A stretch of DNA of 64,000 bases from Centroscyllium fabricii (taxonomy: Eukaryota): assembly GCA_051313645.2 (NCBI GenBank), contig JBNRSN020000005.1, positions 179,924,001 to 179,988,000 on the forward strand, given 5' to 3'. The translations under genes and the position numbers were made by a program. Under the pieces are notes generated by a model. That model was not told the origin of the DNA. It was given only the letters and a program-made list of their open reading frames with translations, and searched no databases. Numbering within the stretch: position 1 is the stretch's first letter; each line of letters begins with the position of its first letter. This document shows, one piece after another, positions 296-63,187 of this stretch.

Positions 296-1783
296 ATGAA
301 CAGGAGGAGAGCAGGACAATCTGGCAAGGCCAAGGGATGCGGCAAAGCCACCAAGCTCGCCCCAGAGCTGATTGAGGACAGCCCGAGGGAAGCAGCTGTA
401 CCTCCACACATCACTCCACCACATGTGGCCGAACCAGATCTCCCCTCGACAGAGGAGGAGCGCCCGCTGGAGTTTGAAGACCAGCCGGGCGTGGTCGAGA
501 ACGAGGCCGACCATGCTGCCGAGGTGGAAGCTCCTCCATCCCCTGTGTCCCTGGGGACAAAGCAAAAGAAGGCGAGGCTGAAGTCTAACCTGAGTTCAGA
601 AGAACAGGAGGAGGTAACTGATATATTTATAACTGATAATCCTTTATTAATAATCACTATCGTCAATTTGATTTTGTATACAACTATATTAATTTTATTC
701 TAGGTGGCCCTCTTTCTGGAAGCCCATGACTTCATTTTTAACAAGAGGCGTGAGGACCACTGCTTCGCTGACCGTAAAAACAAGGCGTGGGAGGACCTGG
801 CCAACAGGATGGGCAAGCAGGTCAAGGCACTGACCACTTTTTTTGAGAGCATGCGGACGCAGGTGGGGAAGATGAGGATTACAAAGAGTGGCCAGGGAAC
901 GATGGAGCTGACAGAGAGGCAGGAGTGGATCTGGAAACGCTTCCAGTTCCTGGTACCACACATCAGCAAGGTCATCAGGCGGAACGTGCAGAGCCTCAAG
1001 CCTCCTACCACACAGCCGGCTCCTGGAGATCCACAGAACAGGGATCATGAGGTGGACCTGCAGGAGGCTAATGTCACCACGCCACCGTTCCCCATCACCC
1101 CAACCTCCTGCATCACCACCGCCAGCTGCTGCAGCTGCAGAGGAGGAAAGGGGAGAGTGGCAGCAACGGAGGAAGAGGAGGACATTGCAGGGGATATTCG
1201 CAAGTCAAGGGAGAGGCAGATGGAGCTGCTGGATATCCTTAAATCACACCCTCTTCATGCTGTTCCCTTTCCGGAGCGCCTCAAGTACGCCGAATATATG
1301 GGGCATGCATTTCAGCGATTGTCCACCGCTAGGTACATTGAGGTGAGGGACAAAATGTGGCAGATCATCTCGAGCACAGATAAGGAGATGGATGAAATGC
1401 AGCATTCCCACCAGGCAGCATCGCTAGGAGCACCTCCACCAGAACCAGCTGGCTATCGACAGAGACCATTCAGCTCATCCACCCTGCCCATGTATCCTCC
1501 TCCTCCTCCTCCTCCATGGAATCAACCCTACCAGCAGCAAGGCCAGTGGCCGTTGCAGCAGTCGCAGTGGCAGCCAAGGCCTGTGGTTCATCCTGCTTGG
1601 CAGCCAGTGGAAACGCCGTGGATGTATCAGCAGCCAGGAACCTCCGGGCACAGTGAAGCCGCCACGGTAAGGAACGTCAGTCCAGCAGCAGAAAGCCAAC
1701 AGCCAGACACGGGTGCACTAGTGGAGGATGTAGTTGTCAGCCTCTCTGAATTTAGCAGTGATGTGACCGACTTTGAGGTCTGA
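296..1783 (+). CDS. Harbinger DNA-binding protein (MADF/Myb-SANT domain plus BESS-like motif); two exons, 296-613 and 704-1783, about 465 aa
   Basis: Donor GAG|GTAACT at 614, AT-rich 90-nt intron, acceptor TTTTATTCTAG|G at 703, phase 0. The join gives LSSEEQEE|VALFLEAHDFIFNKRREDH...KNKAWEDLA...FFESMRTQ...KSGQG...W..FQFL (MADF-like). ERLKYAEYMGHAFQRL...VRDKMWQII is BESS-like. P/Q-rich tail. Confidence 0.85.
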
Positions 1784-1843
1784 ATTAAAATTTGTTAAAT
1801 GTTAGTTCCAAAAAGTTGTTGTTCTGAGTTTTAAAAATTTGGT

Positions 1844-1997
1844 GTTTTAATAATAGTTCTTAAAATTTGTTGTTACATGTGAGTTTTATAAAATTGTTGT
1901 TTTAATAATAGTTCTTAAAATTTGTTGTTACATGTGAGTTTTATAAAATTGTTGTTTTAATATTAGTTCTAAAAATATGTTGTTACATGTGAGTTTT
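1844..1997. repeat. 55-bp AT-rich tandem repeat, about 3 copies, in the Harbinger intergenic/3'UTR region
   Basis: Unit GTTTTAATAATAGTTCTTAAAATTTGTTGTTACATGTGAGTTTTATAAAATTGTT repeated. Confidence 0.85.
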
Positions 1998-2130
1998 AAT
2001 TTTTTTTACAAAAAATAATCCTTGTTTGCTGTTTAAATGTTGCTTTATTCCTGGTTTCCTTTTTTTGCTTAACACTTTATTTATCGCAATAAACATAACT
2101 TTCAAATTAATACTGTCTCAATTTATCAAA

Positions 2131-2275
2131 AAAGTCACACACCACCAGTTTCAAAGTCCAACGGTTTTATTTTAAATTACAAGCTTTCGGAGCTTTTGCC
2201 CCTTTTAGTCAGGTAACACAGAGAGAACGTCAAAGATCACACATGGGGGAGGGGAGAAATCTGAACTTATACATG
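2131..2275 (-). mobile_element. Penelope-like pLTR fragment inside the Harbinger, with a degenerate hammerhead motif (2177-2216)
   Basis: Diverged reverse complement of 4200-4290; minus strand reads TTAC CTGACTA AAA GGGGC AAAA GCTCC GAAA GCTT GTAA, then AATAAA. Confidence 0.65.
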
Positions 2276-2378
2276 TTTGAGAACACTAATGCAAATTAGC
2301 ATACATATCCATATTTATCCATTTAACCACAATTTAAGCATAATCACAGGCAATGTCCAATCACTGTCATTGTGTAAT

Positions 2379-3689
2379 TCACACTTGCTTGTTCAGTCCT
2401 GCCAACCTCTCCTGCCACGGAACAGATCCTGCAGGACTGTTGAAGTAAGCCGTGAGGTACTCCCTCTGGCTCTTGGCCTCCTGATGGTCTCTGTTGCGTG
2501 CATAGGGGTAGGGAACCGCGGCCATCTGCATGCCTTCCCTCCAGGCTCCAGGGATGATGTTGTGGTTGTCATCCTCGTGGTCCACCTCAGCGTTTCCAAT
2601 GGCGGGGAACCTGATCCTCATGAGGTTGTGAAGGAGGACAGCTGTTTCCACCATGGTGCGCACCGTATCTGGATGTTGTTCCAGGGTTCCATGGAAACAT
2701 CTCCATCTGCTGGCCATGATGCCAAAGCCATTCTCCACCACGCGTCTGCCCCTTGAGATTCGGTAGTTGGCCACCATCATCTCATCACTGAGACCCCTCC
2801 TGGAGTAGGGTTTCATGAGGAAAGTTCTGAGGCCAAAAGCATCGTCTCCCAGGATAAAGTAGGGCGTGTCTCTGTCATCATTAGGCAGAGGGTCGTCGTC
2901 AGGGAAGTGGATGGTGTGGTCATCGATGCATTCCCTCAGTTCTGAGGCCCCAAATATCTGTCCATCAGATTGATGACCTTGTCCACCAGTGTCAATCCAG
3001 ATAAACTTATAATCAGCATCCACCATGGCCAGCAGAACCACAGAGAAGAAGCTCTTGTAATTGTAGTACAGACTGCCGGACCTGGGTGGTTTCTTGAGGG
3101 CTATGTGTTTGCCATCCAAGGCCCCCAGGGCATGAGGGACATTCCACCGGTCTTGGAACTGCTGGGCAATGGCTTTCCAGTCCTCCTGGGTCCGGGGCAG
3201 TGGCATGACCTCGTCCTTTAGCGCTTGAATGATGGCGTGGCATACCTCCTTGACGATCACTCCCACGTTGCTCCTGCCACATCTGAAGTCGTAGTGGAGG
3301 GTCGGGTACCCGTCTCCTGTAGCCAGGTGTCTGAGGGTGAGGGCCAGCTTCAGTCCAGCTTCTAGGGGTGGTCTCAGGCAGGTGTGCTGCCTCTGGATGA
3401 CAGGGGTGATCCTTTGGAGGAGCTCATCAAACATCTGGGGTGGCATTCTTACATAGTTGGTGAAGGAGTTCTCATCCTCCAGCCTCAGCTCCTGCAGCAG
3501 TCTGTTGTAGTGCCCATGTTCTAGCCTTCTAGCAGGTGTCAGCCATGGTCGAACCCACCAGCGCTTGCGTCTTCTCTGTCTTCCTGTGGGATCCATTCTT
3601 CTGCTGTTCAGAGCTACCAGCAGTTGGTCTAGATGTTGGTACTCTATTTCCATGGCAAGAGCAAGACATCCTATCAGTTCAAAATCCAT
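2379..3689 (-). CDS. Harbinger transposase (HARBI1-like, DDE_Tnp_4), 436 aa, uninterrupted
   Basis: RWWVRPW, F.NY.RM, LALTLRHLATG, ALDGKH, YYNYK.FFS.VLLA.VDA.YKF, LGDDAF, LMKPY, NYRISRGRRVVENGFGIMASRW, LHN motifs; DDE triad present. Confidence 0.96.
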   Translation of the reverse strand: MDFELIGCLALAMEIEYQHLDQLLVALNSRRMDPTGRQRRRKRWWVRPWLTPARRLEHGHYNRLLQELRLEDENSFTNYVRMPPQMFDELLQRITPVIQRQHTCLRPPLEAGLKLALTLRHLATGDGYPTLHYDFRCGRSNVGVIVKEVCHAIIQALKDEVMPLPRTQEDWKAIAQQFQDRWNVPHALGALDGKHIALKKPPRSGSLYYNYKSFFSVVLLAMVDADYKFIWIDTGGQGHQSDGQIFGASELRECIDDHTIHFPDDDPLPNDDRDTPYFILGDDAFGLRTFLMKPYSRRGLSDEMMVANYRISRGRRVVENGFGIMASRWRCFHGTLEQHPDTVRTMVETAVLLHNLMRIRFPAIGNAEVDHEDDNHNIIPGAWREGMQMAAVPYPYARNRDHQEAKSQREYLTAYFNSPAGSVPWQERLAGLNKQV

Positions 3690-4194
3690 TGTGCAAATGA
3701 CCTGCTCAACCTGGGGTCAGGGTTTTTTTATACCTTTCCGCAACCAAGAATATCCCCGAATGTCAAGAACGATGCCGATTATCTTAAACTATTCGTAGAT
3801 AATTCGTAGTAGTCGTAACTTCATCGTGGAGGTCGTAGTGGATTCGAACAATCACTCGGCACATTCGTAAGTGGGTCGTACCTTATTCGTGCACTTCTTA
3901 CCTGATTCATTGACTTCGTACTTGTTTCTTAAACCATTCTTGACATTCGGCATATCTTTCAAGCCGAATCTCCACGAATATTTCGTGATAAATTCGTTAC
4001 ACCTTCGTACCATCTCCCGAATCGCCAAGAAATCAACAAGAATTTTGACTTTTTTTCCCGAAACGCCAAAAATTTCGATTCGGGGAAATTCGGGAATTCG
4101 AGATATTCTTAGCTCTCAGTGAAAGCGGGGTATTAGAGTGCACAATGTGAAGGTAAAGGAGCTTTCTTGTAGGGAGAGAGTGAAAAAGAACCTG

Positions 4195-7762: not shown

Positions 7763-10700
7763 TGTAGTGCATGCAGGCCTGAAGAACCACGCGGGAGCCA
7801 GAAGGACAGAGAACACTTGTTTTATTCATTGCGTGGCCAGGTAGAAAGAGAGAGAACCACCTGGAGCAGGCTTATTTAAAGCGCCCGCGGTTGGTGATCT
7901 CATCACGCCGGAAGTCGCGGTGACATCATCACGTCACCCGATGGGCGGGGCTGTGCCCCGCAGTACTCCCGAGGCGGATTCGATGTCTTTGGTGGGCGTG
8001 TCGCCACACAGCTCCCCCCCAGAATCTGTACGGGAGAATAAAATAAAATAAAAAAGAGTCTTATGAGAGGCGTTGTAGTGGCCGGATGATGCGGCCGGCA
8101 CGTGTCGTGCGCTACTCCTTGTTCTGCGGTGGAGTGTGGGCGGGTGTTGGTGCGGGAGGGCGTCCGCGTTTCGGTGGTTGCGTGGGGACTGTTGGCTCAC
8201 CCGCTATTACGTGTGCCGGTTTCAACCGGTCTATTGAAACGGTTTCAGTCCTGTTGCCCATTTGCAGTTGGAAAGCTTTAGCTCCCGCCCGAAGCACTCT
8301 GTAGGGTCCATCATACGGTGGCTGTAGTGGCGATCGATGTGCGTCGTGCCGGACAAACACATACTTGGCGTTTTTAATGCCGTCCGGTACACGTGCTGCT
8401 GGCTCTCCGTGCCGGGCCACCGGTAGCGGCTTGAACGCTCGTGCTGGGTTGGTAAAGTCTTTTAGGTACTGGTCAGCTGACCAGGGAGCGTTTGGCTCTG
8501 CGAGGAACTCGCCTGGCACTGTTAGTGTTTGGCCGTAGACGAGTTCCGCTGCTGAGGCGTGCAGGTCTTCTTTGGCCGCTGAGCGTAGGCCGAGCATTAC
8601 CCAGGGCAGGCGGTCTGTCCACGTTGCGTCTTTAAGACTGGCCCGTAGGGATGCTTTCATGGAGCGGTGGAACCGTTCGCAAAGTCCGTTTGCTGTGGGT
8701 GGTAAGCGGTGGTTCGGTGTAGGGATACCCCAAGGTCGCGGGCGATGGTCGCCCATAGTGTCGACGTGAATTGGGGGCCTCTGTCCGACGTAATGTCGGT
8801 GGGTACGCCGAAACGAGCGACCCAGGTGGCAATGAAAGCTCTGGCCAGGTCCATGGTGCTGGTAGCAACGAGGGGGACCGCTTCTGGCCAGCGAGTGCTG
8901 CGGTCGACCATGGTCATGACGTGTGTGTGGCCCCGGGATGGCGGTAGAGGTCCGACCAAATCGATGTGGACGTGGTCGAAGCGTCTAGCTGGCATGGTGA
9001 ACGTTTCCAGCGGTGCCTTGATGTGTTTGTGCACCTTGGCGCGCTGGCAGGCAGTGCAGGCATTGGTCCAGGCGCGGACATCCTTGCGCAGGCCGCGCCA
9101 CACGAAACGTGCCGAAATTAGCTTGATGGACGCGCGGGTGCCGGGGTGGGACAGGCCATGGAGGGTCTCGAAAATGTGTCGCCTCCATGCGTGGGGGATG
9201 ACAGGTCTGGGCCGCGGTAAGGAGACGTCGCAGCAGACTACGGTGGCTGCGGGCCCGTGTGCTACGTTGGCCAAGCGCCGGCCGGGGAGGTTGGTAGCCG
9301 GATTGAGCAGGTCTGGGTCTGCCAGTTGGTCGGTTGCCAGTTTGGCGTAGTCGACCGCTGTTTGGACGGCGTTAATGGTGGGACGTGACAGGCAGTCAGC
9401 AACCACGTTGTCGCGGCCGGAGATGTGCTGTATGTCGGTGGTAAATTCCGACACGGCTGCGAGCTGGTGCTGCTGCCTGGCCGACCAGGGTTCGGCGATC
9501 TTAGCCATCGCGAACAGGAGTGGCTTGTGATCGACGAAGGCTGTAAAATGGCGGCCCTCCAAGAGGAAGCAAAAGTGGCGTACTGAGAGGTAGAGAGCGA
9601 GCAGCTCCCTGTCGAAGGCGCTGTACTTAACCTCTGGGGGCCGAAGTTGCCGGCTGAAAAAGGCCAGGGGTTGCCAGGAGTTGCCGGTCCACTGCTCAAA
9701 GACAGCTCCGACAGCGTGGTCAGAGGCGTCGGTGGTGAGGGCCACTCTGGCGTTGGGCCTAGGGTGGGCTAGGAGCGTGGCGTTGGCCAGGGCGGTTTTG
9801 GTTGCGGTGAAGGCAGTGATGGCTTCGGCCGTCCACTCGACCGCAGTTTTGTTGGACTGCCCGCGTGTGGCCTGGTATAGGGGTGCCATGAGAGCGGCTG
9901 CTCCTGGGATGAAGCGGTTATAGAAATTAAACATGCCTAGGAATTCCTGCAGCCCCTTGATGGAGTGCGGGCAGGGGAATTACTGGACCGCCTGCACCTT
10001 GGAGGGCAGGGGTATGGCCCCAGTTTGGGAAATGCGGTGGCCGAGGAAGTCGATGGTCTCGAGGCCAAATTGGCATTTAGAGGGGCTTAATATGAGACCG
10101 TGTTCGGTCAGGCGTTGGAACAGGGCCCTGAGATGCAGGAGGTGTTCCTGGGGGGAGGTGCTGGCCACGAGGATGTCGTCTAGGTAGACGAAAATGAACT
10201 GCAGGTCCCGTAGGACTGAGTCCATGAGGCGTTGGAAGGCCTGTGCAGCGTTTTTAAGTCCGAAGGGCATTCGGAGAAATTCGAACAGGCCGAAGGGGGT
10301 GATGACGGCTGTCTTAGGGACATCCGCCGGGTGCACCGGGACCTGGTGGTAGCCCCGTACCAGGTCGATCTTAGAGAAGATCGTGCAGCCCGCTAGCCTG
10401 GTGGAGAAATCTTGGATGTGGGGGACAGGGTACCTGTCTGGGGTGGTGACGTTGTTGAGGCGGCGGTAGTCTCCGCAGGGGCGCCAACCACCGCCCGGCT
10501 TGGGGGCGATGTGGAGGGGAGAGGCCCAGGGGCTGTTGGAGCGGCGGATTATGCCGAGTTGTTCCATGGTGCGGAACTCGGTACGCGCGAACTCCAGTTT
10601 GGCCGGGTCCAGTCTGCGGGCGTGGGCATGGACGGGAGGGCCGGTGGTGGTGATGAAATGCTCCACCCCGTGCTTGGCCGTGCGGGCTGTGAAGGTGGGG

Positions 10701-12223
10701 TTGGTGGGGGCTGGGAACTCCGCGAGGAGCGTGCCGTACGTGTCGGAGTTCCGGGTTCGGCAGTGTGCCGCTGCGTGGGCCAGGTGTGCCGGCCCTGTGG
10801 AGCATGGGATGGTCGACATGTTGTGAATGTCGACCAGGCGGCGCCGGGTCATGTCGACCAGGAGGCCGTGGGCGCAGAGGAAATCTGCCCCGAGGAGGGG
10901 TAGTTTAACCTGGGCAGTGATAAAGTCCCAGTGGTACGTGTGGCCGGCGAGCTTGATGGTGAGCTTGCGGGTGCCGTACGTCTTTATTTCGGAGCCGTTT
11001 GCGGCCTCGAGTGGCGGGCCCCGGGTGCCTTTTTTGGCTTCTGCAGGGGAGGCTGGCACAATGCTGTGCTGTGCGCCTGTGTCGCAGAGGAACCGTAGGC
11101 CTGTGCCGCTGTCTGTGGCGTAGAGCAGTGCTCCAGTGTGGCCTACTGACATGGTGGGGCTTGAGCCGGGCTGGGGTTTGAAGGTGCAGGGCTGGACGCA
11201 GTGGTGCGCTTTGGAATCAAACCGCGTGTGGTAATAGCACCAGCCGGTGCCCGATGTGCGCGGCCTTTTGCGGGGTCGCGTTGGCCTGGGTTCAGGCCTG
11301 GAGTCGGACCTGGGGTGTGCGTAGGGGGGCTCGGCTGCCGTGGCAGAGATCCCGCACGTAGCGGAGCGGGAGCGCTCGGCCATCATGAGCTTGTCGGCCT
11401 CCTCAGCTAGCTCGTCCCCGCTCCGGTGGCAGAGGGCCGTCAGGGCCGGTCTGATGGAGGGGGGCAGTTTGAGGAGGAACATGGTGCGCTTGAGGGAGGC
11501 TGGATCTGCGTTCAGCGCTTCCATTTGGGCCCAAAGGTCCGATGGGTCTGCGTCCCCGAGTTCGGGGAGGTTCATGAGCTGGCAGTCGCGCTCAAATTGG
11601 GAGGGGGTGAATTTTTTAAACAGCGCGGCCTTAAGGAATTCGTACCTGCCTGCTGCTGGTGCACGCTGTAACGTCGGCCACATCCGATCGACCGTGGACT
11701 GCGGTAGGGCCGAGAAGACCAGGTCGTAGCGATCATCCCCCTGGACGCCATGGATGCGGCAGCTGGTTTCGATACACAGGAACCATGCCGCTGGGCGTAG
11801 CTCCCAGATCTCCGGTAGAGTTAGTCTGTGCCCGGGGTTCTGGCCAAGTCTTTGAGTTCGCGAAGCTTGGTTTCCTGAAGGCATGTTTGGTGGAAGTGCT
11901 CTGAGGCAGCTTGGCCCTCAGTCCTGCAGCAACTGCTTCTTTTCTCTTGGAAGACGTTCCAAGTTCGATGTCACCACTGTAGTGCATGCAGGCGTGAAGA
12001 ACCACGCGGGAGCCAGAAGGACAGAGAACACTTGTTTTATTCATTGCGTGGCCAGGTAGAAAGAGAGTGAACCACCTGGAGCAGGCTTATTTAAAGTGCC
12101 CGCGGTTGGTGATCTCATCACGCCGGAAGTCGCGGTGACGTCATCACGTCACCCGATGGGTGGGGCTGTGCCCCGCAGTACTTCCGAGGCGGATTCGATG
12201 TCTTTGGTGGGCGTGTCGCCACA
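7763..12223 (-). mobile_element. Full-length Gypsy LTR retrotransposon, CsRn1-like
   Basis: 246-bp TG...CA LTRs at 7763-8008 and 11978-12223 (about 6 mismatches); GATA TSD at 7759-7762 and 12224-12227; PPT GGGGGGGAG next to the 3' LTR; TGG-type PBS next to the 5' LTR. Confidence 0.95.
8112..11884 (-). pseudogene. gag-pol polyprotein (Gag CHCC knuckle, protease, RT, RNase H, integrase) with one stop and one frameshift
   Basis: [18 protein letters not shown]; LCDTGA; YLDD; TDASD; integrase H-H-C-C and DLVGP...SDRG...E; GPY motif. In-frame TAA at 9980-9982; frameshift near 8690-8700. Confidence 0.92.
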
Positions 12224-32209: not shown

Positions 32210-35200
32210 CATAGAAACATAGAAGGTGGGAGCAGCAGTGGGTTATTCGGCCCCTTGAGCCTGCTCCGCCATTCAATGCGATCATGGCTGATCAGCCAAA
32301 TTCAATACCCTGTCCTTGCTTTCTCCCCATATCCCTTGATCCCTTTAGCCTTAAGAAATATATCCAACTCCTTCTTGAATATATTTAATGAATTGGCCTC
32401 TACTGCCTTCTGTGGTAGAGAATTCCACAGGTTCACCACTCTCTGGGTGAAGAAATTCCTCCGCATCTCTGTCCTAAATGGTTTACCCCTTATCATTAGA
32501 CTGTGTCCCCTGGTTCTGGACTCTTTCACCATCGGGAACATTCTTCCTGCATCTAGTCTGTCTAGTCCTGTTAGAATTTTATAAGTTTCAATGAGATCCC
32601 CTCTCATTCTTCTAAACTCCAGCGAGTACAAACCCAATCGACCCAATTTCTCATCATACGTCATTCCTGCCATCCCAGGTATCAGCCTGGTGAATCTTCG
32701 CTGTACTCCTTCCAAGGCGACCATAACTGCACACAATTTTCAAGATGTGGTCTCACCAAGGCCCTGTACAACTGCAGAAAGACATCCTTGTTCCTGTACG
32801 CAAACCATCTTGCTACGAAGGCCAACATACCATTTGCCTTCTTAACCACCTGCTGCACCTGCATGCTTACCTTCAGTGACTGGTGCACAAGAACGCCCAG
32901 GTCTCGTTGCACTTCCCCTTCTCCCAATCTATTGCTATTCAGGTAATAATCTGCCGCCTTATTTTTGACACCAAAGTGTATAACCTCGCATTTATCCACG
33001 TTATATTGCATCTGCCATGCTTCTGCCCAATCACCCAACCTGTCCAAATCATACTGAAGTTTCTTGGCATTCTCCTCAGCACTCACGCTCACCCAGCTTT
33101 GTGCCATCTGCAAACGAGGAGATATTACATCTCGTTCCCTCGTCCAGATCATTAATATATATTGTGAATAGCTGGGGTCCAAGGACCGATTCTTGCGGTA
33201 CCCCACTAGTCACTGCCTGTCACTCGGAAAAAGAGCCGTTTATTCCAACTCTTTGCTTTCTGTCTGCCAACCGGTTCTCTATCCAAGTCAATAACTTGCC
33301 CCCAATCCCATGTGCCTTAACTTTACACGCTAATCTCTTATGCGGGACCTTATCGAAAGCCTTTTGAAAGTCCAAGTACACCACATTCACTGGTTCTCCC
33401 TTATCTATTTTACCAGTTACATCCTCAAACAATTCCTGTAGCTAAGTCGAGCACGATTTACCTTTTGTAAATCCATGTTGACTTTGTCTGAACCGGTCAC
33501 TATTTTCCAAGTACTCTGCTATTACATCTTTTATAATGGACTCTAGCATTTTCCCCACTACTGATGTCAGGCTTACCAGTCTGTAATAACCCGTTTTCTC
33601 TCTACCACCTTTTTTGAACATTAGCTACCCTCCAATCCATGGGTACTGTTCCACAGTCTATCGAATTTTGGAAGATGACCAGCAAAGCATCCACTATTTC
33701 TAGGGCCACTTCCTTAAGTACCCTCGGATGTAGATTATCAGGCCCTGGGGATTTATCGGCCTTCAATTCCATCAATTTCTCTAACACCATTTCCCTACAG
33801 ATACTACTTTCTATCAGTTCCTCCCTTTCATTAGACCCTGTGGTAATATTGAACAGACTTCCGGGGGAAGGCTAAGGGGTGAACTCTGTACATGTCACTT
33901 CCTGTTTTCTATTAGTATAAATACTAGAACTGCTCAGTATGGGGGAACGCTTCACCTGGAAGCATGGTAAAACCCGTCTTTGTACATAGTGATAATGTAG
34001 TGGATTAAAGCTTAAGTTATTGATATATCAGACTCCATTATTACATCAATTTAATCCACTAAAAACTTCACGCTCAAAATCCTTAAAACTTTTGGACGGC
34101 ACGGAACTGAGGATCCAGGGACCAACCCATCATGGAAAGCCTCCTCAAACCTACTCACCTGGATCTGGACCCAAATGCACCAGCAGCTGCCAAGGTATGG
34201 AAGCATTGGTTCCATACTTTTGAGAATTTTCTTGAAGAATGTTGTGAGGATGCCTCTACCAAACTACGATTACTTGTGAATTATGTGTCCCCCAACGTAT
34301 ATGAATATGTTGATAAATGGGATAACTATAATGAGGTAATCCAAGCACTGAAAGAACTATATACTAAGGCCCCAAACGAGGGCTATGCTAGACATTTACT
34401 GTCCATGGCCCAACAAAGGCCAGGGCAATCGATTCAGGAGTTCCTTCAAGAACTTCGCAGGCTCAGTGTAGATTGTAATTTTAAGGCAGCCTCGGCTGAG
34501 GTGTACCACGAAGAAATGATTCGAGATACTTTCATCTGCGGGATCGCCTCTCCATTTATACGCCAGCGTCTGCTAGAGAGAAACACGCTTGAGCTATCAA
34601 AGGCTTTTGACCTGGCTTGTGCTCTGGACTTGGCAAAAGAAAAATTCAGACCTCTATCAGCTGCCCAGATCGCGAACTGCTGCTGCAACTGCAATCAGAC
34701 CATTCAAGGGGCCTCAGGTGGACCCTATCATGGAAGAATCTAGTCTTGATGAGTTCAGTGATGAGGAAGAGGATGACCCCACTTTAGCAGCCTCTTGGCA
34801 ATCTAGGAAGAAATGCTTCTTTTGTGGAGACTCTTTCCACCCTAGGAAATTCTGCCTTGCTCGCAATGCAATTTGCAGTCATTGCAGTAAAAAAGGACAC
34901 TTTGCAAAAGTTTGCCAATCAAGAGCCTCTACGAGGGCCTATCAAGCTAAGGCCTACCGAGCTGCCCCAATTAGGGCCTATCAAGATGCTCCAGCTAGGA
35001 CCTATCGAGCTCCTTCCCGAAGAAACACACCTGGAATTACAGCCTCCCTCTGTGCAACCACACCAATTACAGCTGCCTGCCCTCAAAATTTATTTCATGC
35101 AGCTACAAAAGTCTCGATTAATGGGCATACCTTTGATGCCATAATTGACTCGGGAAGTACTGATAGTTTCATTAGAAAACAGATTGTTGAGAATTTGAAA

Positions 35201-38200
35201 CTACATGTCTTCCCATCGGACCAGGCAATTGCAATGGCTCAGTCATCACTTAATACCAGAATCTCCGGCTTTTGTATTATTGACATGACACTTAATGGCC
35301 GCATGTATCCCTCCACTCGGCTCTCAGTGCTCAAGGACTTATGTAGTGATCTTATCCTAGGGCTAGATTTTCAAAAACAACATAAAAAAACTCATCATTG
35401 AGTTCGGCGGATCCAAACCTGGACTTACTATTTCTAATATACTGTCTAAATCACCATTTTGTGCACTGTCAGCAGCCTCACTTGATGAACCCTCATTATT
35501 CGCCAGTATTCCTCCTCAATGCAAACCAATAATAACCAAATCTCGACGCTTCAGTCAGGAAGATCAGTCTTTCATTGAGACAGAAATCTCTCGTCTTTTA
35601 GCAGAGGACATCATCAAACCATGTTCATCGCCCTGGCGGGCTCAAATCGTCATTGTTAAGAACCCTCTAAAACCTCACAAATAACGACTATGCATTGATT
35701 ACTCTCAAACCGTCAATCAATATACTGACCTGGACGCCTACCCATTGCCACACATTGATGACATGGTTAATAAACTGGCTGAATACAAAGTGTTCTCAAC
35801 CTATGATTTAAAGAGTGCCTATCATCAGGTACCCCTACGGGTCTCAGATAAGAAGTACACAGCCTTTGAGGCTAATGGACGGCTGTATCAATTTCGTCGC
35901 CTCCCATTCGGGGTCACTAATGGAGTGGCTGTCTTCCAATGGGCAATGGATGGCCTCGTTGAGCAGGAAAACTTAAGGGATACTTTTCCCTAACTTGATA
36001 GCATTACTGTTGCAGGCCACGACCAGCAGGAACATGATGCCAACCTCCAAAGATTTCGGGATGCTCTCCATCACCGTAACTTAACTTTAAATTAATTCAA
36101 ATCTGTGGAGTCGCAATCGACCATCAACATTCTTGGCTACTGTGTCGGCAATGGTATCATTAAACCAGACCCGGAAAGACTTCGCCTGCTCCAGGAGCTC
36201 CCTCCACCTAACAATCCGACTTCTTTACGTCGGGCCCTCGGTCTGTTTGCATACTACGCTAAATGGATTCCGAATTTTTCAGATAAAATTCAGCCCTTGC
36301 TGAATGCTAGAACATTTCCATTGGGAACAGTGGCTGTTGCAGCCTTTAACCTTCTCAAGAAACAGTTGGAGAAAGCGACTCTTCACTCCATCAATGAGGA
36401 CCTCCCTTTCGTAGTCGAAAGTGATGCCTCGGAGGTGGCGATCTCAGCTACTCTAAATCAAGAAGGCCGTCCTGTAGCATTCATGTCCAGGACCTTACAA
36501 GGTGCCGAGATACATTATTCTCCAGTTGAGAAGGAAGCCACAGCCATCATAGAGGCAGTACGGAAGTGGAACCATTTCCCAGCTCGCCGGCACTTTACAT
36601 TAATCACGGACCAGCGATCAGTCGCCTTCATGCTCGATAATCGAAAGCGAACTAAAATTAAGAACAATAAAATACAGCTTTGGAGGATGGAATTGGCCTC
36701 TTTTGGTTTCATCATTCACTATCGACCTGGCAAAGAGAATGTGGCCCCGGATACCCTCACACGAGCATTCTGCTCTGCTATGTCATCTTCTACTCTCATA
36801 GACATCCATGATGGATTGTGTCATCCTGGCGTGACTCGCATGTTACATTTCATGCGATCACAGAATCTCCCATTTTCTACTGGAGATATAAAGAAAATGT
36901 GCTCCGAATGCCGAACTTGTGCAGAATTGAAACCTCAGTTCTTCCGCCCCCAGATGGTGCGCTCATACACGCAACCCAACTGATGCAACGACTTAGCATC
37001 GACTTCAAGGGCCCATTGCCCTCTTCAACACGGAACACATATCTGCTCAGAATGATCGATGAATATTCACTATTTCCGTTTGCCTTCCCCTTCTCCAATA
37101 TGCTGGCATCCACTGTAATCAACTGCCTTGAGCAAGTATTTTCTCTTTGTGGCATGGCAGCATACATTCACTCAGATCGGGGTCCATCCTTTATGTCAAG
37201 CGAACTGAAGGACTACCTCTCAGAATGGGGAATTGCGACAAGCAAAACGACGCCATACCATCCCATCGGGAATGGATAGGTAGAGAGATATAACGGAATC
37301 ATCTGGAATTCCATACGGCTTGCTTTAAAATCTCAGAGCCTACCAATCCAGCAATGGGAAGCAGTGCTTCCGGATGCATTACACTCTATACGGTCCCTTC
37401 TGTCTACAGCCACAAATACTACACCTCATGAACGGTTCTTTGGATTCCAGCGTCGCTCATCTTATGGGGCATCTCTTCCATCATGGCTAACTACTCCGGG
37501 ACCCATACTGCTCCGAAGATACGTTCGGACATCTAAAAATGACCCTCTCGTAGATGAGGTCGAACTAACTGATGCCAACCCTACCTATGCCTACATACGA
37601 TATCCCAACAGTCGAGAGTCTACCGTATCATTGCGGGACCTGGCACCCTGCCCACCAGGACCTAGAGGGACGCCAAGGGATAATATCCTACCAGGGGCCT
37701 CCAGGGACCCACCGGGTACCACTCTCCAGGACCCGGATCTGACACCAACTGGCTTTGTGCCGGTCAAATCGCACACTCAAGGTTACGACCCGCCAAGTAC
37801 CTCTTTCCAGGACACTGACCAGACACCAACCGACTCTGAGCCCGTGGGGGCTCGTACGCGGAGGCATGATCCTCCCGGTGCCTCACACCAAAGTGCCAAT
37901 TGGCCGCAGACCAGCTCTGTGCCTTCCCCTGACCAGGGACAAACCAGCTCTGCACCTATTGGAGCTCGTACGCGGAGCCATGATCTCCCCGGCCCTTCAC
38001 AGGGTAATCCAGGCCACGCAGGTTCTGACCCGTGGCCAACAGCAGGTAAACGGCCCAGAGACCCAGACATTGTCCATAGGGATGGACCATCAACCCAGCA
38101 ACGAGAACTCAAATGGGTGCGTCTCCTCCTTGTTCGGCTACTCCGGAATAAAAAGAAGATTCCCGCCTTTTAATTTTTCAGGAGGGAAGAATGTGGTAAT

Positions 38201-39065
38201 ATTGAACAGACTTCCGGGGGAAGGCTAAGGGGTGAACTCTGTACATGTCACTTCCTGTTTTGTATTAGTATAAATACTGGAACTGCTCAGTAGGGGGAAC
38301 GCTTCACCTGGAAGCATGGTAAAACCCGTCTTTGTACATAGTGATAATGTAGTGGATTAAAGCTTTGCTTTAAATTATTGATGTATCAGACTCCATTATT
38401 ACATCAGACCCCATGTTCCCCGACATCTCTGGAAGGTTGTTTGTGTCCTCCTTTGTAATTGGTCTGCCATTTCTTTGTTCCCATTATAAATTCCTCTGAT
38501 TCTGATTGCAAGGGACCTACGCTTGACTTCACCAATCTTTTTCTCTTCACATATCTACAGAAGCTTTTACAGTCAGTTTTTATGTTCCCTGAAAGCTTAC
38601 TCTCAACTTACTCTCATACTCTATTTTCCCCTTCTTAATTAATCCCTGTGTCCTCCTTTGTTGAATACTAAACTGCTCCCAAACCTCAGGTTTACTGCTT
38701 TTTCTGGCCAATTTATATGTCCTCTCCTTGGATCTTATGCTATCTCTAATTTCTCCTGTTAGCCACGGTTGAGTCACCTTTTTTGTTTTATTTTTATGCC
38801 AAACTGGGATGAACAAATTCTGTAGTTCATCCATGCGATCTTTGAATGTTTGTCATTGCCTATCCACCGTCAACCCTTTGAGTGACATTCCCCAATCAAT
38901 CCTACCCAACTCGTGCCTCATACCACTGTAGTTTCCTTTATTTGAATTCTGGACCTTAGTCTCAGTCAACTCCTTCACTCTCCATCTTAATGAAGAATTT
39001 GATCATATTATGATCGCTCTGACCCAAGGGGCCTCGCACAACAAGATTGCTATTTAATCCTCTCT
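32210..39065 (-). mobile_element. CR1 LINE ORF2 (32210-33833 + 38412-39065), interrupted by a Gypsy element
   Basis: DKSPGPDNLHPRVLKE, YLDFQKAFDKVPH, WQMQYNVDKC, TRGHSL; sequence continues across the GACCC TSD. Confidence 0.88.
33839..38406 (+). mobile_element. Full-length decayed Gypsy LTR retrotransposon without a tRNA PBS
   Basis: TG...CA LTRs at 33839-34048 and 38192-38406; GACCC TSD at 33834-33838 and 38407-38411; PPT AGGAGGGAAGAA; Gag with two CCHC knuckles, DSGS protease, RT, RNase H (ESDAS), integrase (DFKGP, SDRG); several stops and frameshifts. Confidence 0.95.
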
Positions 39066-43153: not shown

Positions 43154-44045
43154 GGACGCAAAATTCGTGAGTGCACGATTTGGGGCACTAAAACGGGCGC
43201 AGCGCTAAAATTAGTGCCGGAGCACCCGATATTCACTTCTGTGCCGGCCTTGCTGATTGCGGCGCTAATTCTAGCGTTGCACGACTGCAAACGCCCAATA
43301 TCGTGGCGCTAATTGCCGATCGCGGGCGCAGCGCTCCTTCATCAACTCCTTGCTTTCCCATGAACTCTGGATCCGGACAGGTCTTAAAGGGGGTACCCCT
43401 CCCTCATCTCCCCGATCTCTGCCAATGCCCCTCATCATCTCCCCGATCTCGCCCAACTCCCTTCAGCATCTGCCCGATCTCGGGCCGCCCGACCCCCCTC
43501 AGCAACTGGCCGATCTCGGGCCGCCCGACCTCCCCGCAGCAACTGGCCGATCTCGGGCTGACCCCCCCCTCCCGCAGCAACTGGCCGATCTCGGGCTGAC
43601 CCCCCTCCCGCAGCAACTGGCCGATCTCGGGCTGACCCCCCCCTCCCGCAGCAACTGCCGGATCTCGAGCTGACCCCCGTCCCGCAGCAACTGGCCGATC
43701 TCGAGCTGACCCCCTGCCCGCAGCAACTGGCCGATCTCGGGCCGAAGAGGCTACCAAGGAAAGGGAGGGTCGCCCTTTTAGCAGCGCTGCAGTGGCCACG
43801 CAGACCCTCAGCAGCACTTGTCAAAGCTGGCGCTGGCAGCGCTGCGCCAGGGGGACTGGCACAAAGGGGAATATCGGGCGCAGTCCGGCGGGCGGGCGTT
43901 GAACCCTGATATGCACGACGATTGCCAATCGCAAATTAGCGCGCGCTAACAGTTAGCGCCGGCGCTAGTCGGGTGGCGAATTTAGCACCCGGCGCTAAAA
44001 CCTGTAGCGCCCATTTTTCGGCGCTAAGGCGGCAATTTCGTGCCC
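43154..44045. mobile_element. Tourist/Harbinger-type MITE
   Basis: TAA TSD at 43151-43153 and 44046-44048; imperfect TIR GGACGCAAAATT / AATTTCGTGCCC; CpG-rich. Confidence 0.8.
43470..43742. repeat. About 35-38-bp minisatellite, about 7 copies
   Basis: CCCGCAGCAACTGGCCGATCTCGGGCTGACCCCC(C)n units. Confidence 0.9.
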
Positions 44046-44090: not shown

Positions 44091-45273
44091 GGCCCCAATA
44101 TTTACAAGGAGGCTGGATAGGCCGAAAAACCTGATAAGGCTGGGAACATGGATATCTTGCCAAACTTAATGGCAGGGCCTCATTATCATTTTTTATTCCG
44201 TTTCCTGTCTGGCAGCAGGCTAAATTAACAGCCTGGCTGGCGGCCAGGAGGGAGGGAAAACCAGAGGCAGGAGGCTGCAGCTTTTGACCCTTGGGAGGGA
44301 GGAAGGTCAACGATTGTGGCAGGGTGGAGAGAGAGGCCATCAGAGAAGAGGGAAGAGAGAGGAGATCTCAGCAAAGGGAAGAAAGGCGCGTTTGTGGCGG
44401 GGTTGAGAGTCCATCGTGGTAGGGAGAAAGAGAGAGTCCATCGTGGCAGGGAGAAAGAGAGAGTCCACTAAGGCAGGGAGAAGAGAGGAGTCATTGTGGC
44501 AAGGGGAAGAGAGAGGCCATCACTGCAGGGAGAAGAGAGAGGCCATCATAGCGGGGAGAGGAGAGAGACCATCACGGCAGGGGGAGGAGAGAGACCATCA
44601 CGGCGGGGGGAGGAGAGAGGTCATCACGGCGGGGGGAGGAGAGAGGCCATCACGGCGGGGGGGTGAGAGAGGCCATCACGGCGGGGGGGGGGGTGGAGGG
44701 GGTGAGAGAGGTCATCACGGCAGGGGGAGGAGAGAGCTCATCACGGCAGGGGGAGGAGAGAGGCCATCAGGGCGGGGGGAGGAGAGAGGCCATCACGGCG
44801 AGGGGAGGAGAGAGGTCATTGAAGCTGGTGGGAGGTAGAGGCCATCAGTTTTGGAGGGAGAGAGGTTGCGATTGGCAAGTGGTAGGCTGAAGACTTCCTT
44901 GAGGGGCCAGGGGGGAGCACTCCTGCTCATCCTGACTCACAGGGAATGCTGGTAAAGGCACTTACCTTTTGGAGCCAGCAGTTCCCACCTCCCTTTAACT
45001 GCTAGTTTTCCCGACTCCTGGGAAGCATGCGCAGCAGCAGTGAATTTTAAATCAGACTCCCAATTGTACTTGGGAACCCGATTTAAATATGTCAATAAAG
45101 TGTCCTCCTTCTCCATGGCGGGACAGACACATGCCACGATATCCGCTGCAGTAAAAGGGTGGTGGGTGCGTGTATGCTGTGTTGGGGGCACATTCGCCAT
45201 ATTTAAGCATTTTACACCCCCAACACCCTCCTGGCCCTCTCCCACCCATTGTGGGATGGTTAATAATGAGGCC
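44091..45273. mobile_element. MITE with 15-bp TIRs and an internal purine-rich minisatellite (about 26-27-bp unit, 44500-44830)
   Basis: GGCCCCAATATTTAC / GTTAATAATGAGGCC; flanks ACA and ATA; unit GGAGAGAGGCCATCACGGCGGGG. Confidence 0.75.
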
Positions 45274-60254: not shown

Positions 60255-63187
60255 TGTTGCCGAATCAATGACCTCGGAGACGAGATGTAACGAGGTGAAA
60301 CAAAAGGCTTTTATTAGCGAAAAGGCAGGGCATGCACCAGCTAGTCGACCGCTCCCAGAATGAATGGGGGAAGGGAGACAGTCGCTTATGTACCTGGTCC
60401 TGGGAAGGAGGAGTCACAGGCGGGGCTAGCATGGGCATGCCCAGGTAAGCAACATACAGAGAACTATGTACATGCTCACAGGCCGTTGGTTACACACATA
60501 TATATTCAAAGTGGTTTACCACATTCACCCCTTGTTTAAAACAAATCCGGCGGGGCGAATGCGACGCAGTTCTTAGAGGTCGAGCCTGTCGGGCGCCCTG
60601 GTCTGCCTAGTCGATCAGCACACCGCTGGTGGTGGAGTCGGCGGGCGCACCGTTGGGCCTCTGCCGACAGGGGAAAGGTGGTTGATTTAAGTAGTGGGCG
60701 GGCTTTGTCCGCATAGTTGGGGACCCACTGGGCATAGTAAGAAAAGAACCCCAGGCACCTTTTCAGGGCCTTGAGGGAGTGGGGGAGGGGGAGCTCCAGG
60801 AGGGGGCGCATGCGGTCCGGGTCGGGACCGATGACCCCATTCTCCACAACACTGCCGAGGATGGCGAGGCTGGTTGTCCTGAACACACATTTTTCTGTGT
60901 TATAGGTCAGGTTTAACATTTTGGCGGTGTGGAGAAATCTCTGGAGGTTGGCGTCATGGTCCTGCTGGTCGTGGCCGCAGATGGTCACATTATCGAGATA
61001 CGGAAAGGTGGCCCGCAGTCCGTACTGATCAACCATTCGGTCCATCTCCCTTTGGAAGACCGAGGCCCCGTTGGTGACGCCAAATGGAACCCTGAGGAAG
61101 TGATAGAGGCGGCCATCAGCCTCGAAGGCAGTATAGTGACGGTCCTCTGAGCGGATGGGGAGCTGGTGGTACGCAGACTTCAGATCGATGGTCGAGAAGA
61201 CCCGAAACTGGGCGATCTGGTTCACCATGTCCGCTATGCGGGGGAGGGGATACGCATCTAGCTGCATAAACCGGTTGACGGTCTGACTGTAGTCCACAAC
61301 CATCCGGTGTTTGGCTCCGGTCTTCACCACCACTACCTGCGCCCTCCAGGGGCTATTACTGGCCTCGATAACCCCCTCCTTCAGGAGCCGCTTCACCTCA
61401 GACTTGATGAAGTCTCTGTCCCCGGTACTGTAGCGCCTACTTTTGGTGGCGACGGGCTTGCAGTCCGGGGTGAGGTTGGCAAAGAGCGAGGGGGGGGCGA
61501 CCTTAAGGGTCGAGAGGCCGCAGGTAGCGCGCTGTGGGTACTGCGGGGAGCGCTGGTTGCTGACCGTGAGCGGGGGAAGGGGCCCACCGTACGCCATGGT
61601 AACGCTCTGGAGGTGGCACTGAAAATCGAGGCCCAGCAGTAAGGGAGCGCAGAGCTGCGGCAGCACGAATACTTTAAAATTACTGAAGTGTACGCCCCGC
61701 ACTGTCAGGGTCACAACGCAGTGACCGCAGACGTCCGCAGATTCGGACTTAGACGCCATCGGTATTTTTTGTCTAGCCGGCATGACTTTAAGGGAGAAGC
61801 ACTTTACCGTATCTGGATGGATGAAGCTCGCCGTGCTCCCGCTGTCAAAAAGGCACTCTGTACTCCGCCCGTTCACCTGCACCGTCATCATAGATCTGCT
61901 GAGTGGCTGACTCTTGTTCTGGTCGAGTGTGATGGGGGCCAGTATCGGGTCGGTCGAGTCAGTTGAGAGGTCTGGGGCCTGTTCCCAAGATGGCTGCCGC
62001 CACGCAGCGTGCTGTGATGGAGATGGCTGTGTCCAAGATGGCGTCTGCTCCCACGCGGCGGGCTGTGGTGGAGATGGCTGTGTCCAAGATGGCTGCCCCC
62101 ACGGCCCACACGCGGCGCTGCCCGGTTTGGAGGGCGCTATTGCCGCTGCTCTGCAGACTTTAGCGAAATGTCCTTTCTTACCGCATTTCGAGCAGGCCGC
62201 CTCTCTCGCCGGGCAGTTTCGCCTGGGATGTTGGGCCTGGCCGCAGAAGTAGCATTTCGGCCCTCTCGAGTGCGTAGCCACAGTCATCTCTTCCGCCGGT
62301 CGCGGCGCGGCCGGCTGTGCCCAAGATGGCGGCGCCGGCGATGGGGCCACGTGGTTGCCCGAGTAAGACGACAAGTTAAGGGACACCAAGTCCAGCGCGT
62401 TCCCCAGGTCAGCTGTCGCCTGCAGGTCCATACCGTTTTGCTCCAAGAGTCTTTGGCGGATATAATCGGACCTGAGGCCAGTCACATAAGCGTCCCTGAT
62501 GAGACTGTCCGCGTGCACCTGGGCTGTCTGTAACTTACAGTTGCAGGCCCGGCAGAGGACTCTCAGCGCTCGTAGGAACTCCACGCTCGATTCCCCGGGA
62601 TGCTGCTTTCTGGTGGCCAGGAGGTGTCTGGCGTGGACGAGGTTCGGTGTCCGGTTGTACTCGGCTTTTAGAATCCGGATCGCATCTAGGTAGGACGATG
62701 CATCCGCGATCATCGAGTAGCTTTGGGGGCCCACCCGGGCGTTGAGAAGGCGCCGCTTGTCCTCCTCTGTCCGGACGACCGCCGCGTTTGCTTTGAGGAA
62801 CGCGTCGAAACAGTCGAACCAGTGCGTGAAGGTATTGGAGGCGCCTGGTGTTTGGGGATCCAGTTCGAACGTTGCTGGTTTTAGCATGGACTCCATAGTT
62901 AAATTTAGCTAATAAAATTGTTACCGAATCAACGACCTCGGAGACGAGATGTAACGAGGTGAAACAAAAGGCTTTTATTAGCTAAAAGGTAGGGCATGCA
63001 CCAGCTAGTCGATCGCTCCCAGAATGAATGGGGGAAGGGAGACAGTCGCTTATGTACCTGTTCCTGGGAAGGAGGAGTCACAGGCGGGGCTAGCATGGGC
63101 ATGCCCAGGTAAGCAACATACAGAGAACTATGTACATTATCACAGGCCGTTGGTTACACACATATATATACAAAGTGGTTTACCACA
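60255..63187 (-). mobile_element. Internally deleted Gypsy LTR retrotransposon without a tRNA PBS
   Basis: 269-bp LTRs at 60255-60523 and 62919-63187 (about 9 mismatches); TSD ATACC/CTACC; PPT AAGGGGTGAA. Confidence 0.93.
60536..62896 (-). CDS. Gag-protease-RT ORF (786 aa) lacking RNase H and integrase
   Basis: CYFCGQAQHPRRNC and CSKCGKKGHFAKVC knuckles, FDSGS protease, DLKSAYHQ, PFGVTN, YLDN; homology to the 33839 element ends after TTFPLSAEAQ. Confidence 0.88.
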   Translation of the reverse strand: MESMLKPATFELDPQTPGASNTFTHWFDCFDAFLKANAAVVRTEEDKRRLLNARVGPQSYSMIADASSYLDAIRILKAEYNRTPNLVHARHLLATRKQHPGESSVEFLRALRVLCRACNCKLQTAQVHADSLIRDAYVTGLRSDYIRQRLLEQNGMDLQATADLGNALDLVSLNLSSYSGNHVAPSPAPPSWAQPAAPRPAEEMTVATHSRGPKCYFCGQAQHPRRNCPAREAACSKCGKKGHFAKVCRAAAIAPSKPGSAACGPWGQPSWTQPSPPQPAAWEQTPSWTQPSPSQHAAWRQPSWEQAPDLSTDSTDPILAPITLDQNKSQPLSRSMMTVQVNGRSTECLFDSGSTASFIHPDTVKCFSLKVMPARQKIPMASKSESADVCGHCVVTLTVRGVHFSNFKVFVLPQLCAPLLLGLDFQCHLQSVTMAYGGPLPPLTVSNQRSPQYPQRATCGLSTLKVAPPSLFANLTPDCKPVATKSRRYSTGDRDFIKSEVKRLLKEGVIEASNSPWRAQVVVVKTGAKHRMVVDYSQTVNRFMQLDAYPLPRIADMVNQIAQFRVFSTIDLKSAYHQLPIRSEDRHYTAFEADGRLYHFLRVPFGVTNGASVFQREMDRMVDQYGLRATFPYLDNVTICGHDQQDHDANLQRFLHTAKMLNLTYNTEKCVFRTTSLAILGSVVENGVIGPDPDRMRPLLELPLPHSLKALKRCLGFFSYYAQWVPNYADKARPLLKSTTFPLSAEAQRCARRLHHQRCADRLGRPGRPTGSTSKNCVAFAPPDLF

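Follow-up and report, generated by a model that had tools for sequence, protein, structure and literature searches.

Elements in the window

The window, the whole analysed stretch of 64,000 nucleotides of Centroscyllium fabricii DNA, contains two LTR retrotransposons of one clade, here called E1 and E2 (Table 1). E1 (33839-38406) was classified as a Ty3/Gypsy element on the basis of its paired LTRs, target duplication, polypurine tract and PR-RT-RH-IN order; the 5-bp duplication GACCC flanks it at both ends. The search of its integrase tail gave no Pfam match to a chromodomain or to SH3_Tf2-1. The RT of E2 is 56% identical to that of E1.

The window also holds E3 (7763-12223, minus strand), a Gypsy element of another clade with a DUF7041 gag, LTRs that are 98% identical and a TGG-type primer site. 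At 704-3716 there is a MADF-domain frame on the plus strand and a DDE_Tnp_4 transposase on the minus strand, a pair which we take to be of the Harbinger/PIF type. Minisatellites are present at 1825-1998 (27-28 nt unit), 43428-43744 (36-38 nt) and 44319-44916 (26 nt).

Table 1. Positions of the features of elements E1 and E2 in the window
Feature	Position	Strand	Remarks
E1 5' LTR	33839..34048	+	direct repeat with 38192-38406, TG..CA ends
E1 TATA box TATAAATA	33916..33923	+	best TATA score, -82 from arm; none at -35..-25
E1 putative transcription start and primer 5' end	33946..33947	+	3/10 family-group junction copies that end near the promoter end at TATA+30/31
E1 arm, paired 3' end of the putative self-primer	33998..34009	+	ends in ATTAAA (34004-34009); arm-to-minus-strand junctions in family copies
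E1 loop, putative template of short minus-strand strong-stop DNA	34010..34049	+	40 nt here
E1 non-tRNA primer-binding site	34050..34061	+	complement of arm
E1 gag-protease-RT-RNase H-integrase	34132..38170	+	interrupted by stops and frameshifts
E1 polypurine tract	38180..38191	+	directly before 3' LTR
E1 3' LTR	38192..38406	+	second arm copy at 38350-38361
E2 5' LTR	62919..63187	-	same clade as E1; direct repeat with 60255..60523
E2 TATA-like box	63056-63049	-	initiator A lies 31 nt downstream
E2 initiator A	63025	-	31 nt after TATA-like box, 39 nt before arm
E2 arm	62986-62973	-	14 bp, ends AATAAAA
E2 primer-binding site	62904..62917	-	14-bp complement of E2 arm
E2 3' LTR	60255..60523	-	element internally deleted, integrase missing

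Inspection of the E1 LTR/leader junction revealed no TGG directly after the 5' LTR. The terminal CA and a single A (34049) are followed by a perfect 12-bp reverse complement of the arm, and a match of this length or longer was obtained in 1 of 3,000 dinucleotide shuffles of the E1 LTR. The original prediction of a leader complementary to an ATTAAA-bearing arm of its own LTR was thus borne out, as was the placing of the arm about 80 nt downstream of a TATA-like word. The diverged element at 60255-63187, for which the same geometry with another sequence had been claimed, is E2, whose 14-bp arm/leader pair bears this out.

Both junctions are abundant in the 7.2-Gb genome, in which the exact E1 LTR/leader junction occurs in 2,055 copies and 6,048 normal junctions of E2 were counted; a first look by gag search yielded 337,484 candidates. 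Among 25 scorable E1 copies (29 were picked by gag) the leader was unchanged at 12/12 positions in 21 and at 11/12 in 4.

The loop in the 5' LTR of E1 lacks 6 nt that are present in its own 3' LTR. Small, varied deletions at the palindrome after the arm (34004-34020; loci L061-L089) were noted in 16/29 5' LTRs versus 6/21 3' LTRs (p=0.086), and an identical deletion was never found in both LTRs of one copy. A general scar of strand jumping was considered for this hotspot and rejected; it is family-specific, since it is absent in E2 copies and rare in those of a further family, E4. A separate AATAAA lies at 38147-38152 in the end of pol, 45 nt upstream of the 3' LTR, and is kept in 19/19 copies checked; this signal must be ignored or suppressed.

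Conservation of the arm/leader helix

An RT alignment gave 80 metagenome loci related to the clade, 33 of which were testable in that a gag start was present with 230 nt or more upstream. These loci were not selected for pairing, and in 19/33 a perfect complement of 11-17 bp was found in register, that is, beginning 1-3 nt after a CA. The remaining 14 fell below the cut-off for a perfect match; about eight of them have a decayed pair when judged by eye, and six are left over. Lack of conservation of the pairing in relatives, which would have spoken against the original prediction, was not borne out.

A second set of 25 families, 5 from this genome and 20 from metagenomes, was picked for showing the pair, and related families in it are not independent. 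Watson-Crick pairs were present at 12/12 positions in 19 families, 11/12 in 5 and 10/12 in 1, and only 7/600 cross-family combinations of arm and leader reached 12/12. At the variable positions 5-12, with at most four pair types per column, 98.5% of positions were paired within families versus 54% across them, and one single copy (L241) carries a two-sided change relative to its family. The check for covariation at the junctions of the clade thus came out positive in both sets: the letters change and the pairing is kept. At the level of sequence comparison, a covarying arm/leader helix is confirmed across a separate animal Gypsy clade.

The end of the helix stays in register, one base past the LTR, in almost all families. 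Directly 3' of the arm RCCT is found in 18/25 families, and in 15 of these 18 it has an AGGY partner that would form a hairpin after the arm (3.2 expected). Of the three duplexes that make up the 'pretzel' around the primer site in the Tf1/sushi group, the stem at the U5 end was found in 12/25 families, which is not above shuffles, and the z-scores of folding of the whole region were weak (-1.4 and -1.6). For E1 and E2 folding predicts that the nearby 5' arm pairs with the leader in cis. In one copy (L212) a template switch inverted the loop of the small post-arm hairpin and added a perfect copy of the arm complement.

A host tRNA matching the leader had been named as counter-evidence to the original prediction. 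Among the tRNA-Lys and tRNA-Cys genes, to which the screen was limited, the longest complement was 4-5 nt, so the prediction stands as far as these two are concerned. An Rfam search returned a chance match only, and the leaders of the families are too different from each other for one host RNA.

Promoter position and putative transcription start

The TATA box of E1 is common to other families of the clade in the C. fabricii genome. In eight families or subfamilies a TATA or TATA-like box lies at -67 to -94 from the arm, and none was found at -35..-25 in the four families scored there; L260, the fifth representative, has no clear TATA box. Sushi-type elements of the same genome served as controls: among 20 loci fetched, 5 copies retain an intact self-complement of 10-11 nt, and in each of them TATTTAAG lies at -30 from the arm. 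In these five (L324, L325, L333, L334 and L340) AGTAAA is the likely poly(A) signal.

These positions bear on ordinary Tf1-type priming, in which transcription would start at the arm and the upstream TATA box would be irrelevant. It is the sole form of self-priming shown experimentally, as described in passages of PMC4600332, and TATA-like words occur at -24..-29 of the arm in five metagenome relatives. The shark-type families, however, lack the box at -35..-25 that the sushi controls possess, and copies of the primer (described below) end upstream of the arm, in E2 by 37-41 nt and in a sister group, X, by a similar distance. For the clade as a whole a start at the arm is hence quite improbable; it is contradicted for the shark-type families and may hold for some invertebrate-type branches. 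The five relatives may have kept the Tf1 layout, or the words may be due to chance in AT-rich DNA, and the internal position of the arm is therefore perhaps not clade-wide. The claim that the arm lies well inside R and not at the cap is supported by the stops of primer copies at TATA+30 and by the sushi controls.

Genomic copies of putative priming junctions

The genome was searched for places where the arm, together with LTR sequence upstream of it, is followed by the complement of the LTR end. In the E4 family 31 matches were obtained as compared to 671 normal junctions. Four of them are inverted LTR pairs or remnants, and the other 27 are LTRs that carry, between the arm and the next base, an insert complementary to the spacer and U5 end. 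The inserts are mostly 18-19 nt long (others have 8, 23, 40 or 71 nt), and the junction is exact or within one base in 24/27, with a short overlap in the remaining 3. The aberrant LTRs belong to several subfamilies and mostly have their own target duplication. The minus strand in these copies ends at the first base after the arm and then copies its own start and the primer, so that both junctions are as self-priming predicts. No stop at the start site was detected in E4. More than 10 near-identical E4 copies, tens of kb apart, lie at 93.3-94.4 Mb of one contig (G000:C712; L216, L227-L236), probably as a result of segmental amplification.

None of the 27 E4 junction copies touches the internal region, as against 11/30 ordinary LTRs (p=0.0004), and an event at a 5' LTR already integrated is thereby disfavoured. 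The same numbers weigh against the proposal that the helix serves poly(A) control only, a host RNA acts as the primer and template switching on DNA at the inverted repeat gave rise to the junction copies. Template-switch products do exist (L212, L541) and 16/25 arms end in a canonical hexamer, which folding with the leader present is predicted to bury. Against it stand the solo state of the junction copies, the register of the helix one base after the LTR and the diversity of the leaders, and a DNA event would not end at an initiator, so this proposal is extremely improbable.

In E2 the search gave 59 matches (57 distinct), mostly a whole LTR followed by the copy of the primer. The initiator A was named before the stops were mapped, and the stops were placed by gapped mapping. 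Fourteen of the 57 fall within 2 nt of the initiator A, 18 inside the primer, 16 at the LTR start and 9 between; in the 34 nt below the initiator there are 30 stops, and in a stretch of equal length above it 7. Taken by itself, the second batch places 5/23 at the initiator (p=0.0004). The 16 stops at the LTR start and the 9 between need an extra jump or a later deletion. Group X gave 766 matches, and among the 30 examined 7 stop at the initiator, six of them exactly on the A, which corresponds to a primer of 51-54 nt. The pattern used for this group required the hexamer, hence its matches are no test of hexamer conservation. Two group X LTRs (L201, L247) are inserted within the leader or arm of related elements.

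For the E1 type 76 loci (out of 130 matches) were examined; 66 continue into U3 and 10 end sooner; 3 of these ends lie at TATA+30/31 and 4 within the primer, with another 3 at other places. The start given for E1 in Table 1, which would correspond to a primer of about 64 nt, is less firm because two of the three copies that define it join gag through 4-6 nt of microhomology and one adjoins a SINE. The arm is joined directly to the 8-nt U5 stem in 42/76 loci; among 16 such loci whose context was checked, one lies behind a polypurine tract and the other 15 are unattached. We infer from the pile-up of primer-copy ends at the initiator that it marks the cap site. At 9/17 stops a G directly precedes the 5' end of the copied primer, as might come from copying of a cap; this signal is too weak to use. 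The joining of this end to gag in L618, L621, L628, L633, L644 and L705 suggests that RT jumps from the primer end onto element RNA.

The sushi-type control gave 0 footprint matches, a search with no power as only 53 normal junctions were available, and an uninformative search for retroposed copies with an A tail also gave 0 matches.

The junction copies could also come from priming in trans or from the 3' end; the RNA annealing to the leader would then be either a short capped LTR transcript made separately or the arm copy in the 3' R, trimmed in both cases to the hexamer. In favour of this, the end of the arm coincides with the expected place of a poly(A)-proximal 3' end, U3 is contiguous with the arm in many junction copies (16/57 in E2, 66/76 in the E1 type), and the 5' stop would be the same with a short capped transcript. 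A stop at the initiator would nevertheless not be expected of a primer formed by the 3' end of the genome itself; in the 27 E4 copies the minus strand goes no further than the base that follows the arm, which looks like a template cut at this place, and pairing of the nearby 5' arm with the leader in cis is predicted. This route is consequently very unlikely. Priming from the arm without a tRNA, as originally claimed, is supported by the covariation together with the junctions between primer and minus strand.

Possible masking of the poly(A) signal

The arm ends in a canonical hexamer in 16/25 families and lacks it in 9/25. With the leader present, the last six bases of the arm are predicted to be paired in all 25 families (unpaired probability 0.01-0.12), versus 0.05-0.99 without the leader. 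A local hairpin can cover the hexamer in leader-free RNA as well, the unpaired probability then being 0.05 in L213 and L101 and 0.49 in E1. Cap-proximal poly(A) signals are often weak anyway. These predictions agree with the originally proposed hiding of the signal in the 5' LTR only, but leave a real role of the helix in masking possible and somewhat doubtful; masking would be a plausible side benefit of the helix.

Proposed mechanism

In the reading that we prefer, the leader of the clade pairs with the arm of its own LTR, and synthesis is likely primed by a capped piece of the element's own RNA that would begin at the start site and finish with the final base of the poly(A) hexamer. Transcription would begin about 30 nt after the TATA box and 39-52 nt before the arm, as the genomic primer copies indicate. 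Since these copies end at the initiator predicted from the TATA box, the primer is likely a capped RNA of about 52-64 nt and not the first 11 nt as in Tf1. The arm would then fold onto the leader in the 11-17-bp helix for which covariation was demonstrated, and the RNA would be cut right after the arm at the conserved TAAA|RCCT junction, a position taken from the junction copies and corresponding in E1 to the bond between 34009 and 34010. By analogy with Tf1, the cutter may be the RNase H of the element.

RT would extend the arm across the spacer and U5, giving a strong-stop DNA of the loop only (24-70 nt in the clade). The first jump would in consequence be limited to the short stretch between the hexamer and the poly(A) site in the 3' LTR, only about 10-30 nt as estimated from the usual poly(A) spacing. 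The primer may sometimes be left on, and plus-strand synthesis or fold-back would then copy it up to its 5' end and yield the aberrant copies. Copying of the primer would renew the leader from the arm in each cycle, which would explain the tight covariation.

Put together, the picture of an independent self-priming system in a widespread and abundant animal Gypsy clade, in which one helix is both a long capped-primer duplex cut at the hexamer end and a switch silencing the 5' poly(A) signal, with failed cDNAs mapping both primer ends to the base, is offered tentatively, as a composite that could well prove wrong in part.

Comparison with known systems

The RTs of the clade form one branch with a support of 100 in an unrooted tree of four clades only. 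They are 26-32% identical to the RTs of sushi-type elements of the same genome and of those which, from their motifs, we take to be CsRn1-like and Mag-A-like. The integrase of a sushi-type control (L325) gave Pfam matches to both Chromo and SH3_Tf2-1. Relatives identified by RT, not by pairing, occur in sharks, rays, a fluke, spiders and a sea slug, and none was found in IMG/VR. The double zinc knuckle of the clade looks Mag-like to us. A published name was sought by motif in the searched supplement files of PMC6238403 and PMC8556966 without a match, and the atlas gave generic gag clusters only.

The literature covered comprised passages of PMC6317226, PMC3601003, PMC4600332, PMC5341516, PMC11042837, PMC6934838, PMC5443660, PMC3670739, PMC8220671, PMC12801592, PMC11117352, PMC13524379 and bioRxiv 2022.12.06.519325, with Repbase reports and subscription journals outside its scope. 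In these passages self-priming is described for Tf1/sushi, Tcn1 and plant copia elements, and none deals with the present clade or with an arm overlapping a poly(A) signal. As far as they go, they link self-priming to chromoviruses and to a small number of plant copia lineages and place the primer at the cap.

If an animal clade apart from these has its primer at an internal position, self-priming arose more than once and the cut needs no nearby 5' end. Annotation based on the PBS would miss such a clade, and silencing by tRNA fragments should not reach it. Aberrant solo LTRs can be read for primer ends and start sites without any RNA, and this method is reusable.

In HIV-1 the hexamer in R is likewise covered by RNA structure, but this is a local hairpin and priming is by tRNA, whereas the helix described here is long-range and would also be the primer duplex. 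The tRNA-primed Gypsy elements have a TGG site complementary to the tRNA's 3' end, unlike E1 and E2, which lack TGG after the LTR. Mag-type animal Gypsy elements resemble the present clade in the short element, short LTR and single gag-pol frame (4,696 bp with a 208-bp LTR for pufferfish Mag1, in a table of PMC11117352). They share the 5-bp target duplication with E1, yet RTs of the Mag-A-like elements of this genome are 26-31% identical to those of the clade, which keeps its own branch.

In plants Tcn1 (Gypsy) and TAR, Houba and Osr-1 (copia) are predicted self-primers, with an LTR region likewise complementary to at least 10 bases right after the 5' LTR (passages of PMC6317226), and they differ from the present clade in lineage and host. 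Neither a start site nor an overlap of the arm with a poly(A) signal is mentioned for them in these passages. Tf1/Tf2 of S. pombe, Tj1 and the Tf1/sushi chromoviruses also have no tRNA site and an LTR complementary to the site just after it, and in the Tf1/sushi group the primer is copied into plus-strand DNA (passages of PMC11042837). The present clade differs from this group in its helix of 11-17 bp placed 39-52 nt inside R, its loop of 24-70 nt and its arm ending on the hexamer, as well as in the lack of a chromodomain, an RT 27-31% identical and a separate branch. It most likely works like Tf1 and yet is not a member of the Tf1/sushi group, and most likely represents a new form of self-priming in a non-chromovirus clade of animal Gypsy elements.
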